Part shown: positions 26,759 through 30,285 of the stretch, in pieces
How the letters are laid out: each line of letters begins with the position of its first letter
Position numbering within the stretch: position 1 is the first letter of the stretch
Assembly: GCF_988242995.1 (NCBI RefSeq)
Contig: NZ_OZ547043.1
Length of the DNA stretch: 64,000 nt
Direction: 5' to 3' (one strand)
The notes under the pieces: generated by a model
What the model was told of the DNA's origin: nothing
What the model saw: the letters and a program-made list of their open reading frames with translations, nothing else
Databases searched by the model: none
Program-made: the position numbers and the translations under genes

Positions 26759-29191
26759 ATGAGTGTGATTGCGCAGGCAGGGGCGAAAGGTCGTCAACTG
26801 CATAAATTTGGTGGCAGTAGTCTGGCTGATGTGAAGTGTTATTTGCGTGTCGCGGGCATTATGGCGGAGTACTCTCAGCCTGACGATATGATGGTGGTTT
26901 CCGCCGCCGGTAGCACCACTAACCAGTTGATTAACTGGTTGAAACTAAGCCAGACCGATCGTCTCTCTGCGCATCAGGTTCAACAAACGCTGCGTCGCTA
27001 TCAGTGCGATCTGATTAGCGGTCTGCTACCCGCTGAAGAAGCCGATAGCCTCATTAGCGCTTTTGTCAGCGATCTGGAACGCCTGGCGGCGCTGCTCGAC
27101 AGTGGTATTAACGATGCGGTGTATGCGGAAGTGGTGGGTCACGGTGAAGTGTGGTCGGCGCGCCTGATGTCTGCGGTGCTTAATCAACAAGGGCTGCCAG
27201 CGGCCTGGCTTGATGCCCGCGAGTTTTTACGCGCTGAACGCGCTGCGCAACCGCAGGTTGATGAAGGGCTTTCTTACCCGTTGCTGCAACAGCTACTGGT
27301 ACAACATCCGGGTAAACGTCTGGTGGTGACCGGGTTTATCAGCCGTAACAACGCTGGTGAAACGGTGCTGCTGGGGCGTAACGGTTCCGACTATTCCGCG
27401 ACACAAATCGGTGCGCTGGCGGGTATTTCTCGTGTAACCATCTGGAGTGACGTCGCCGGGGTATACAGTGCCGACCCGCGTAAAGTGAAAGATGCCTGCC
27501 TGCTGCCGTTGCTGCGTCTGGATGAAGCCAGCGAACTGGCGCGTCTGGCGGCTCCCGTTCTTCACGCCCGTACTTTACAGCCGGTTTCTGGCAGCGAAAT
27601 CGACCTGCAGCTGCGCTGTAGCTACACGCCGGATCAAGGTTCCACGCGCATTGAACGCGTGCTGGCCTCCGGTACTGGTGCGCGTATTGTCACCAGCCAC
27701 GATGATGTCTGTTTGATTGAGTTCCAGGTGCCCGCCAGTCAGGATTTCAAACTGGCGCATAAAGAGATCGACCAAATCCTGAAACGTGCTCAGGTGCGTC
27801 CACTGGCGGTTGGCGTGCATAACGATCGCCAGTTGCTGCAATTTTGCTACACCTCAGAAGTGGCCGACAGTGCGCTGAAAATCCTCGACGAAGCGGGATT
27901 ACCTGGCGAACTGCGCCTGCGTCAGGGGCTGGCGCTGGTGGCGATGGTCGGTGCAGGCGTCACCCGTAACCCGCTGCATTGCCACCGCTTCTGGCAGCAA
28001 CTGAAAGGCCAACCGGTCGAGTTTACCTGGCAGTCCGATGACGGCATCAGCCTGGTGGCAGTACTGCGCACCGGACCAACCGAAAGCCTGATTCAGGGGC
28101 TGCATCAGTCCGTCTTCCGCGCGGAAAAACGCATCGGCCTGGTATTGTTCGGCAAGGGCAATATCGGTTCCCGCTGGCTGGAACTGTTCGCCCGTGAGCA
28201 GAGCACGCTCTCGGCGCGTACCGGCTTTGAATTTGTGCTGGCAGGTGTGGTGGACAGCCGCCGCAGCCTGTTGAGCTATGACGGGCTGGACGCCAGCCGC
28301 GCGTTAGCCTTCTTCAACGATGAAGCGGTCGAGCAGGATGAAGAGTCGCTGTTCCTGTGGATGCGCGCCCATCCGTATGATGATTTAGTGGTGTTGGACG
28401 TTACCGCTAGCCAGCAGCTTGCTGACCAGTATCTCGATTTTGCCAGCCACGGTTTCCACGTCATCAGCGCCAACAAACTGGCGGGAGCCAGCGACAGCAA
28501 TAAATATCGCCAGATCCACGACGCCTTCGAAAAAACCGGGCGTCACTGGCTGTACAACGCCACCGTCGGTGCGGGCTTGCCGATCAACCATACCGTGCGC
28601 GATCTGATCGACAGCGGCGATACTATTTTGTCGATCAGTGGGATCTTCTCCGGCACGCTCTCCTGGCTGTTCCTGCAATTCGACGGTAGCGTGCCGTTTA
28701 CCGAGCTGGTGGATCAGGCGTGGCAGCAGGGCTTAACCGAGCCTGATCCGCGTGATGACCTTTCCGGCAAAGACGTGATGCGCAAGCTGGTGATTCTGGC
28801 GCGTGAAGCGGGTTACGACATCGAACCAGATCAGGTGCGCGTGGAATCGCTGGTGCCTGCCCATTGCGAAGGCGGTAGCATCGACCATTTCTTTGAAAAC
28901 GGCGATGAACTTAACGAGCAGATGGTGCAACGGCTGGAAGCGGCCCGCGAAATGGGGCTGGTGCTGCGCTACGTGGCGCGTTTCGATGCCAATGGCAAAG
29001 CGCGTGTGGGCGTGGAAGCGGTGCGTGAAGACCATCCGCTGGCATCACTGCTGCCGTGCGATAACGTCTTTGCCATCGAAAGCCGCTGGTATCGCGATAA
29101 CCCTCTGGTGATCCGCGGACCAGGCGCAGGGCGCGATGTCACCGCCGGGGCGATTCAGTCGGATATCAACCGGCTGGCGCAGTTGTTGTAA
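26759..29191 (+). CDS. metL: Bifunctional aspartokinase II / homoserine dehydrogenase II (810 aa)
   Basis: MSVIAQAGAKGRQLHKFGGSSLADVKCYLRVAGIMAEYSQPDDMMVVSAAGSTTNQLINWLKL... Confidence 0.97.
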   Translation: MSVIAQAGAKGRQLHKFGGSSLADVKCYLRVAGIMAEYSQPDDMMVVSAAGSTTNQLINWLKLSQTDRLSAHQVQQTLRRYQCDLISGLLPAEEADSLISAFVSDLERLAALLDSGINDAVYAEVVGHGEVWSARLMSAVLNQQGLPAAWLDAREFLRAERAAQPQVDEGLSYPLLQQLLVQHPGKRLVVTGFISRNNAGETVLLGRNGSDYSATQIGALAGISRVTIWSDVAGVYSADPRKVKDACLLPLLRLDEASELARLAAPVLHARTLQPVSGSEIDLQLRCSYTPDQGSTRIERVLASGTGARIVTSHDDVCLIEFQVPASQDFKLAHKEIDQILKRAQVRPLAVGVHNDRQLLQFCYTSEVADSALKILDEAGLPGELRLRQGLALVAMVGAGVTRNPLHCHRFWQQLKGQPVEFTWQSDDGISLVAVLRTGPTESLIQGLHQSVFRAEKRIGLVLFGKGNIGSRWLELFAREQSTLSARTGFEFVLAGVVDSRRSLLSYDGLDASRALAFFNDEAVEQDEESLFLWMRAHPYDDLVVLDVTASQQLADQYLDFASHGFHVISANKLAGASDSNKYRQIHDAFEKTGRHWLYNATVGAGLPINHTVRDLIDSGDTILSISGIFSGTLSWLFLQFDGSVPFTELVDQAWQQGLTEPDPRDDLSGKDVMRKLVILAREAGYDIEPDQVRVESLVPAHCEGGSIDHFFENGDELNEQMVQRLEAAREMGLVLRYVARFDANGKARVGVEAVREDHPLASLLPCDNVFAIESRWYRDNPLVIRGPGAGRDVTAGAIQSDINRLAQLL

Positions 29192-30285
29192 TCCTGAGCC
29201 AGAGAAAGCAGTATTTGCGTAACGCGCCCTGCGGAAAGCGGGGGGCTGTGAGTAAATACTGCTTGTTTATGTAGCCAGTCGATAAAATGTCTGCTGGTTG
29301 CGAAAGAGAGTATTTCAGCTTTGCTGTTATTTCCGCCTGTTAATGCACATACCATTTTACGATTTTTGCCCTGAACCCAGAGTTGCCACTGATTTTTCCA
29401 CCAGCCGTGATAAGTTTTTCCCTGAAAACGCCAGGGCGTATTATCGGTATAGTCAGCTATTTCCTCTTCAATAAACCAAATCTCACCTTGCTGTTGGCGA
29501 AACAGTTCTGCCCAGGCCGTAATAATCGCACCTCTTAAAAAACACTCGTGTGAAATTACATGTGTTTTTACTGTAGGGAATAAAATATTCAGTACTCTAA
29601 AATGCCCGTGCGCTGTGATAACCGGACGCAGAATAACACCTTTAGCATTGCGCTTGAGCGCTGCGCTGCCATACTGAATTTCATCAAACTGACTGCGGTG
29701 TAGAAATTGTGCTTCGCGCATATCAACGCGTTGTACAATATTATTGTCGTGTAACTCTGGTTCTGCATTTCCTCTGTATCGATAATGCAGACTTTCTCCA
29801 GCCTGATGCTGCGTGTAATTAGTAGAAAGATGAAGAATATTACCGCGAAGAGCATCAAAACTGATTAAAACATACAGTTTCTGCCCGCCGCTGGCTCCCT
29901 GAAATGGCACCAGAAGAGCAACCGTTTCGATTATTTCAGGAGGCGTTATTTCTTTCTGATATTGTTTAGGTGTCCATACTTTTTTGCAGTTACGACATTG
30001 AATGCGTTGCGACCCCTGTGGATTGTGGCCATAACAAATCGTCTTTGTGCCATAACATACCGGGCAGAAATGACCTTTCTCAGTTGCAAAAGTAGATAAG
30101 TGAACTGACAACCAGTCACGAAATTGCTGTTCGTCAAACAACGGCGGGTAACTTCCACATGCCCGACAGTGCAGTGCCGGATAACCCAGTCGATAGTCTG
30201 GCCAGCTGTAATCTGTCGATGTTGGTTGCCCTAAATTACGACAACCAAACGACTTGCAGGCATTAATCGTAAACAGAGTCGACAT
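29155..30285 (-). CDS. Hypothetical protein (376 aa) with two N-terminal Cys4 zinc-ribbon motifs and an unrecognised C-terminal domain of about 270 aa; not part of the K-12 gene order
   Basis: Long ORF with SD-like GGTG 7 nt upstream; Cys pairs C10/C15+C40/C43 and C74/C77+C97/C100 (FCPVCYGTKTICYGHNPQGSQRIQCRNCKKVW resembles InsA/IS1595-type zinc ribbon); no DDE motifs found by eye; 3' end overlaps metL 3' end by 37 bp. Confidence 0.6.
   Translation of the reverse strand: MSTLFTINACKSFGCRNLGQPTSTDYSWPDYRLGYPALHCRACGSYPPLFDEQQFRDWLSVHLSTFATEKGHFCPVCYGTKTICYGHNPQGSQRIQCRNCKKVWTPKQYQKEITPPEIIETVALLVPFQGASGGQKLYVLISFDALRGNILHLSTNYTQHQAGESLHYRYRGNAEPELHDNNIVQRVDMREAQFLHRSQFDEIQYGSAALKRNAKGVILRPVITAHGHFRVLNILFPTVKTHVISHECFLRGAIITAWAELFRQQQGEIWFIEEEIADYTDNTPWRFQGKTYHGWWKNQWQLWVQGKNRKMVCALTGGNNSKAEILSFATSRHFIDWLHKQAVFTHSPPLSAGRVTQILLSLAQDYNNCASRLISD

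Follow-up and report, generated by a model that had tools for sequence, protein, structure and literature searches.

The gene and its locus

The window analysed here, a stretch of 64,000 nucleotides from contig NZ_OZ547043.1 (NCBI RefSeq assembly GCF_988242995.1), is an Escherichia-type chromosome segment in which metJ, metB and metL are followed by the open reading frame (ORF) that is our subject, a 5'-nucleotidase gene, metF and katG. The ORF is one unbroken frame of 376 codons, transcribed away from the nucleotidase gene. A first-pass annotation made from the sequence alone had placed a 376-aa protein here, divergent from a nucleotidase gene; its coordinates and quoted sequence were borne out, the ORF lying on the minus strand with an ATG start, and the neighbour does encode a 5'-nucleotidase/metallophosphatase (Table 1). 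The ORF and metL are convergent and overlap at 29155-29191, the last 12 codons of the ORF being antisense to the end of metL, and the C-terminal tails differ in the orthologues of other genera.

The ORF is a real gene under purifying selection. A word-indexed search returned 251 homologues, and an exhaustive search returned 115 cluster representatives (clusters at 50% identity, in Gammaproteobacteria), 90 of them with E < 1e-10. The ratio of nonsynonymous to synonymous divergence (dN/dS) was 0.08-0.25 against the orthologues from CFT073, Citrobacter, Enterobacter and Klebsiella, and synonymous divergence in these comparisons was saturated or close to it. An AlphaFold2 (AF2) model, built from an alignment of 52 family sequences reaching down to 19% identity, is of high confidence (predicted local distance difference test 94.5, predicted template modelling score 0.93). 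The first-pass annotation had allowed that the ORF might be spurious, lacking homologues with conserved cysteines; with these homologues, their conserved cysteines (see below) and this selective constraint, that outcome did not occur.

The family has so far gone without a description of its own. Pfam gave nothing significant for the 376-aa protein itself, neither Pfam nor NCBIfam holds a model that covers its family, and our literature search turned up no publication on it. Database entries for its members read 'hypothetical', 'cytoplasmic protein', 'InsA N-terminal domain-containing protein' or 'IS1 family transposase'.

The ORF and the nucleotidase gene together form an accessory island. Of 5426 complete E. 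coli genomes, 1837 contain this two-gene block; a search with the ORF alone found 1745 places in 1744 genomes, nearly all chromosomal; two of the places are on plasmids, and one genome has two places. The E. coli alleles are deeply diverged, with 1167 genomes carrying a form 95-99% identical to that of the window and 538 a form about 80% identical, CFT073 among them. Between the window and CFT073 the synonymous divergence (dS) is 1.17 for the ORF as against 0.149 for the adjacent nucleotidase gene, which indicates a recombination breakpoint between the two, in or near the intergenic region. The island of CFT073 is larger, with two further 5'-nucleotidase genes and a Tsx paralogue after the ORF on its strand, in addition to the divergent 5'-nucleotidase gene. 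According to a 2026 paper, extraintestinal pathogenic E. coli have Tsx and three UshA-like genes in the metL-metF region; the ORF is not among the genes listed (PMC12928451). The Citrobacter orthologue occupies the same metL-metF site, and in Enterobacter and Klebsiella the module lies at other chromosomal sites.

Table 1. Features of the locus (positions in the window; residues of the 376-aa protein)
Feature	Position	Strand	Remarks
Accessory two-gene island between metL and metF	29193..32202		3.0 kb; 197 nt in its place in E. coli K-12
Gene of the 376-aa protein	29155..30285	-	ATG start; 'cytoplasmic protein' in RefSeq; 37-nt overlap with the 3' end of metL
C-terminal helical bundle, residues 320-374	29164..29328	-	Ends in conserved YN motif (N367)
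Trp-rich four-stranded beta insertion, residues 268-314	29344..29484	-	Conserved GWW..W motif (W296, W300)
RNase H-like (DDE transposase/integrase-type) core, residues 118-263	29497..29934	-	From AF2 model and structure comparison
Zinc site 2, residues 72-106 (C74, C77, C97, C100)	29968..30072	-	IS1 InsA-type zinc ribbon
Zinc site 1, residues 8-43 (N8, C10, K11, C15 ... C40, C43)	30157..30264	-	Beta-hairpin knuckle in AF2 model
Divergent intergenic region	30286..30417		132 nt; length within a nucleotide in Escherichia, Citrobacter, Enterobacter and Klebsiella
Palindrome CAACGA-N10-TCGTTG, candidate operator	30293..30314		8 nt upstream of the ORF's ATG
Perfect CRP-consensus site TGTGA-N6-TCACA	30343..30358		Midway between the two start codons
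Inverted repeat CTTTCAG-N27-CTGAAAG	30368..30408	+	Overlaps the Shine-Dalgarno sequence of the 5'-nucleotidase gene
Divergent 5'-nucleotidase/metallophosphatase gene	30418..31971	+	517 aa; UshA/YfkN kind; signal-peptide-like N-terminus

Zinc sites, fold and DDE positions

The protein has cysteines at positions 10, 15, 40, 43 and 74, 77, 97, 100, which the first-pass annotation had read as tandem Cys4 ribbons, each of the form CxxC...CxxC. Two Cys4 sites do exist and are conserved, C97 and C100 being invariant and C10, C15, C40, C43 and C77 at least 90% conserved in the 52-sequence alignment, although the first has the spacing C-x4-C...C-x2-C. Site 1 is specific to the family and has no counterpart in IS1 InsA; an alternative alignment of it to the IS1 finger reached 0.8% and is not credible. 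The N-terminal zinc modules are basic, with a net charge of +5 in the region of the second (ZF2).

The likeness of site 2 to the ribbon of IS1 InsA, noticed at first pass, proved well founded. In the protein itself, residues 74-105 score 21.3 bits with the NCBIfam model IS1_IS1595_Zn, below its cutoff of 28, and the model transpos_IS1 covers residues 74-122, also below its cutoff; a PHROG 'transposase' family matches the protein as well. Among the 52 family members, the Pfam model Zn_ribbon_InsA (PF03811) is significant in seven, the best at 1.4e-7, and Zn_ribbon_IS1595 gives weak matches in five. Alignment of the family profile with residues 4-87 of IS1 InsAB', which hold the zinc finger and the helix-turn-helix (HTH), had a probability of 96.6% (hhalign, E 6e-10), and the hidden Markov model of the family picks out the IS1 InsA ORF of K-12 (E 5e-11). 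On these profile comparisons the N-terminal module descends from an IS1-type transposase, a link that is firm at the family level.

Downstream of the ribbon, the window protein and its distant relatives part ways. Full-length relatives of 370-570 aa, 19-41% identical, have ~45-70 extra residues between zinc ribbon 2 and the first strand of the next domain (b1). This segment aligns with the InsA HTH in hhalign, and these long relatives carry a LuxR-type HTH. The HTH of InsA is required for binding the ends of IS1. In the window protein it is missing: the alignment shows a gap of ~66 columns, the AF2 model runs from ZF2 directly into b1, and the two zinc modules are the only candidate DNA-binding modules left. 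The same segment is absent throughout the enterobacterial clade of ~376-391 aa (Escherichia, Citrobacter, Enterobacter, Klebsiella, Kluyvera, Pluralibacter, Salmonella), a clade that is still under purifying selection.

The remainder of the protein had been called an unrecognised, His/Trp-rich C-terminal domain. Its composition was confirmed (17 His, 11 Trp), and by sequence it remains unrecognised, with no match beyond the zinc ribbon in Pfam, NCBIfam, PHROGs, PADLOC or the PDB. By structure, however, it has an RNase H-like fold of the transposase/integrase type. The core elements in the AF2 model are b1 (118-127), b2 (135-144), b3 (150-155), a1 (183-196), b4 (217-219), a2 (221-235), b5 (241-245) and a further helix (248-263). 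In structure comparison the figures were 9.4 for a TnsB-type integrase, 9.4 for ISCth4, 8.9 for HIV-1 integrase, 8.3 for Mos1, 7.9 for Mu and 7.7 for Tn5, with Argonaute PIWI and endonuclease V lower down. The best 50 matches of a Foldseek search against AFDB50 were all family members. C2H2 zinc-finger matches in the PDB profile search were cysteine-driven, and we regard them as compositional.

A conserved acidic triad is absent from the 52 sequences, in agreement with the first-pass annotation, which had seen no DDE motif. Mapped by the order of secondary-structure elements and not by three-dimensional superposition, the positions where two of the DDE aspartates would be expected are taken by T121 (Thr or Ser in 49 of 52) and by a conserved Arg-Pro pair (R220, P221); acidic residues reach at most 17% in any b1 column and at most 12% just after b4. 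The sole always-acidic position is E247 (100%), which lies right after b5, about where the third DDE residue is expected. With two of the three triad positions devoid of a conserved acidic residue, the protein is, on the evidence of the alignment, not catalytic as a DDE enzyme.

No full-length match to a characterised transposase, which the first-pass annotation had held up as the finding that would undo its reading, was found. The core compared with IS1 InsB gave a non-significant BLASTP E of 0.06, and low-stringency hhalign against InsB extended the alignment inconsistently. Matches made by eye (QRWLFYAYDSLRK with QKLYVLISFDALRG, and a common HVIS) are leads only. The relation to IS1595-family (ISXO2-like) transposases is confined to the zinc-ribbon type, which falls under the joint IS1_IS1595_Zn model; the IS1595 DDE model (DDE_Tnp_IS1595) found no Pfam match in any of the 52 members, and the InsA model fits better.

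Comparison with InsAB' and InsA of E. coli IS1A sets the limits of the kinship. Both have an N-terminal CxxC...CxxC zinc ribbon of the same type, long family members share an InsA-like HTH, and an RNase H-like domain of catalytic type also follows in both. In contrast, the family protein is encoded by one continuous ORF, whereas IS1A in K-12 has insA and insB joined by a programmed -1 frameshift. The family protein also has the extra upstream zinc site and ~150 more residues, which make up a loop with R197, D201 and Y205, the Trp-rich beta insertion and the C-terminal helical bundle. Neither b1 nor the stretch after b4 carries a conserved acidic residue in the family, no HTH is present in the window protein, and the two cores share no significant pairwise sequence similarity. 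Nor does the window gene have the ~23 bp terminal inverted repeats of IS1: no inverted repeats flanking the ORF were found, and no IS1 end within 3 mismatches was found anywhere in the 64-kb window. The gene stands in single copy at a fixed locus, as against thousands of copies of IS1, for which the same search returned 16774 places in at least 5000 plasmids, all of them near-identical copies. Of six features that define an IS1 transposase, the protein thus has the zinc ribbon and lacks the other five: the HTH, the triad, the frameshift, the ends and the multiple copies. To annotate it as an IS1 transposase would be wrong, and so is the label 'IS1 family transposase' on members of the family.

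The gene is single-copy, chromosomal and not mobile. We conclude, with a probability of about 0.85, that the protein is a host protein domesticated from an IS1-type transposase. Domestication had been among the possibilities raised at first pass, and it is now strongly supported by the DDE/integrase fold, the absence of a conserved acidic triad and the single copy at a fixed locus.

Gene neighbourhoods and the shared promoter region

Gene neighbourhoods are the strongest clue to function. In ~35 loci, spread over Enterobacterales, Vibrionaceae and further Gammaproteobacteria, relatives of the protein nearly always adjoin genes for periplasmic 5'-nucleotidases or Tsx channels, or nupC or deo genes. 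A 5'-nucleotidase gene is divergent from the family gene in E. coli, Citrobacter and the loci of P0123 and P0144, the nucleotidase of P0123 being 72% identical to that of the window. Longer divergent arrays are 5'-nucleotidase-5'-nucleotidase-Tsx in Enterobacter and 5'-nucleotidase-Tsx-5'-nucleotidase in Klebsiella; nupC-deoC-deoA-deoB-deoD is divergent in locus L004, Agarivorans and Gynuella, and deoB-deoD-nucleoside symporter at P0141.

A second arrangement, in tandem, is found in Vibrionaceae and Psychromonas. In all 21 loci with upstream sequence (from Vibrio, Photobacterium, Aliivibrio, Enterovibrio, Thaumasiovibrio and Psychromonas) the family gene comes directly after a 5'-nucleotidase gene on the same strand, at a distance of some tens of nucleotides (22 nt in L008), and no other flanking gene is common to more than four of these loci. 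Between species the nucleotidases of the tandem loci are 73-83% identical, the family proteins only 32-43%. A small Vibrio subfamily (P0171, P0261; L009-L011, L042, L043) is placed differently, tail-to-tail with an operon for a Tsx-like channel, a sulfatase and a radical-SAM anaerobic sulfatase-maturase, and has no nucleotidase genes there. PADLOC models matched neither the 376-aa protein nor the nucleotidase of the window.

The intergenic region shared by the two divergent genes is well conserved across four genera (Escherichia, Citrobacter, Enterobacter and Klebsiella), while the proteins are only 62-76% identical. Three elements stand out in it. First, the CRP consensus is the only match in the window, against 0.04 expected, and is conserved or nearly so in the four genera. 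Second, each locus in Escherichia, Citrobacter and Klebsiella has one copy of the palindrome, with the word AYCAAC in its arms. Lastly, the arms CTTTCAG and CTGAAAG of the inverted repeat are exact in Escherichia, Citrobacter and Enterobacter and differ by one base in Klebsiella. As RNA, this repeat would sequester the Shine-Dalgarno sequence of the nucleotidase gene, with a hairpin marginally more stable than shuffled sequences (z -1.7); a search of the intergenic region and its surroundings against Rfam brought up no RNA family.

The word AYCAAC recurs beside family genes. It is present in 28 of 31 of their regulatory regions, with 47 occurrences as against 10.1 +/- 2.8 (maximum 17) in dinucleotide shuffles, and in an unbiased count ACCAAC ranked first once A/T-rich 6-mers and CRP half-sites were set aside. 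In the 250 nt upstream of some Vibrio nucleotidase genes (L014, L018, L026, L034) there are LacI-type palindromes, e.g. AAGCAAACGATTGCTT, followed a few nucleotides later by TGTGA, which look like a combination of CytR or PurR with CRP; other Vibrio species have ACCAAC(T/A)CAAA words there instead. The motifs upstream of the Vibrio nucleotidase genes are heterogeneous, and a single operator could not be derived from them.

Function of the protein and competing readings

From its architecture and context, we suggest that the protein may be a transcription regulator of the adjacent nucleotide-scavenging module, a tentative reading to which we give slightly less than an even chance. A role in regulating the divergent nucleotidase gene had been offered at first pass, and the support that it gains here is indirect, coming from the conserved gene linkage and the conserved intergenic region. 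We postulate that the protein would bind specific sites in the shared promoter region much as a transposase binds its ends, though without cutting, and together with CRP would control how its own gene and the divergent 5'-nucleotidase gene are transcribed. The candidate binding site in E. coli is the palindrome with its AYCAAC word. The dead catalytic domain could serve oligomerisation and possibly provide a sensor pocket formed by R197, D201, H228, H246 and E247. In longer relatives the InsA-like zinc ribbon and the HTH would make the contact with DNA; the enterobacterial form, its HTH lost, would have to depend on the two zinc modules or else on a partner.

Several points weigh against this reading. 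Our main reasons for caution are that the window protein has lost the HTH of its longer relatives and that the invariant polar residues R197, H228, H246 and E247 would fit an enzyme as well as a sensor. The word AYCAAC was picked after viewing the data, and some of the regions share a common descent, so the palindrome stays a candidate operator only. The operon-like order in Vibrionaceae would suit a regulator, and it would suit a functional partner of the nucleotidase just as well. As for the derivation of the core, the mapping of the DDE positions follows secondary-structure order, and the BLASTP comparison with InsB is not significant.

The idea of a transposase kept as a regulator has precedents. 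Eukaryotic DDE transposases have been domesticated as DNA-binding regulators, as in FHY3/FAR1, which come from Mutator-like elements, and in the mariner domain of SETMAR. In contrast to these, the window protein is bacterial and derived from IS1, and its regulatory role is a proposal. DDE transposases serving as host proteins are well documented in eukaryotes, and to our knowledge few bacterial cases exist. A bacterial parallel is TldR, a group of nuclease-dead, TnpB-derived repressors found beside their target genes; as is proposed here, transposon-encoded nucleases have there turned into transcription regulators. TldR proteins, however, are built on an RuvC-type, RNA-guided scaffold, and Rfam found no guide RNA or known RNA family near the window gene. 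The classical regulators of the nucleoside uptake and catabolism genes tsx, nupC and deoCABD are CytR and DeoR, with CRP. These control the same class of genes as adjoins the family members, and a CRP site lies in the shared promoter region here, but they have unrelated LacI and DeoR folds, and no homology of the 376-aa protein to them was found.

The whole gammaproteobacterial family of 115 clusters appears to be derived from an IS1-type transposase, and a host function has preserved it through long evolutionary times. The constancy with which its members accompany 5'-nucleotidase, Tsx, nupC and deo genes suggests that the scavenging of nucleotides and nucleosides has a layer of control, or a step, that has gone unrecognised so far, also at the metL-metF island in CFT073 and similar extraintestinal pathogenic E. 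coli. The family also offers a tractable system for studying how a transposase becomes a regulator and what follows from the later loss of its HTH.

A novel enzyme had been a further role suggested at first pass. Among the alternatives to regulation, we consider it unlikely, though worth weighing, that the RNase H-like domain has been remodelled around R197, D201, H228, H246 and E247 into an enzyme or accessory factor of nucleoside or nucleic-acid metabolism, one that acts on a cytoplasmic nucleic-acid or nucleoside substrate or assists the nucleotidase/Tsx module. In its favour, sequences as little as 19% identical all retain R197 and H228, have an acidic residue at position 247 in every case and conserve H246 to 92%; the gene takes an operon-like position behind a 5'-nucleotidase gene in the 21 Vibrionaceae-type loci; and the short form is under purifying selection despite the loss of its HTH. 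However, the family gene faces different operons (5'-nucleotidase, 5'-nucleotidase-Tsx, nupC-deo, deoBD) in at least seven independent divergent arrangements, a pattern typical of regulators, and the N-terminal module goes back to a known DNA-binding repressor, InsA being a transcriptional repressor that binds the ends of IS1. Moreover, no similarity to any enzyme family was found, and, as read from the sequences, the nucleotidase has a signal peptide and the 376-aa protein none.

A related proposal, equally doubtful in our view, is that the former DDE site has been rebuilt as a His/Glu/Arg pocket (R197, D201, H228, H246, E247) that would sense or act on nucleosides, nucleotides or nucleic-acid fragments. 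If this were true, the protein would be the founding member of a class of bacterial ligand-responsive, transposase-derived regulators or enzymes governing nucleotide and other periplasmic scavenging modules, with sister subfamilies wired to sulfatase/Tsx-like modules.

Somewhat less probable still is that the protein regulates the module without binding DNA itself, the short form acting as a protein partner that modulates CRP, CytR-type regulation or another family member. The missing HTH, present in relatives, would fit such a role, as would the perfect CRP site in the shared promoter region and the palindromes of LacI type, resembling those of CytR or PurR, that adjoin TGTGA in front of certain Vibrio nucleotidase genes. 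The conservation of the palindrome by the ORF's own start codon in Escherichia, Citrobacter and Klebsiella speaks against it, as do the basic zinc modules, and no partner has been identified.

That the protein is a working, non-canonical transposase or recombinase, moving the nucleotidase gene as a passenger cassette, is very improbable. Such an element would account for the presence/absence polymorphism of the island in E. coli, the different chromosomal sites of the module in Enterobacter and Klebsiella, the Vibrionaceae loci in which the gene pair alone is kept and the flanks differ, and the two E. coli copies on plasmids. Yet all genomes checked bar one hold a single copy, terminal inverted repeats and IS1 ends were not found as described above, and at two of the three catalytic positions the family has no conserved acidic residue. 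Furthermore, the orthologues diverge roughly like their hosts, with dS saturated between genera, and much faster than the supposed passenger gene; such host-like divergence argues against a recent horizontal spread of one element. The remaining idea, a spurious ORF or a decaying transposase relic without function, has on its side the uninformative database names and the existence of truncated variants, but selection and conservation have already disproved it: dN/dS is low across saturated synonymous divergence, many genera have full-length orthologues, the fold is predicted with high confidence and the gene linkage is kept across orders.

Two minor observations concern the surroundings of the gene. 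The 197 nt that replace the island in K-12 show no similarity to it, and the metL-metF spacer of K-12 (L002, 3331-3465) contains an annotated 135-nt 'hypothetical protein' ORF where the island would be. Elsewhere in the window, Rfam matches above the gathering score are at 2735-2858 (STnc490), 5641-5682 (ES036), 19333-19390 (ClpQY promoter element), 24002-24054 (L31 leader), 57717-57826 (OxyS) and 62817-63006 (cobalamin riboswitch), all ordinary for this region.

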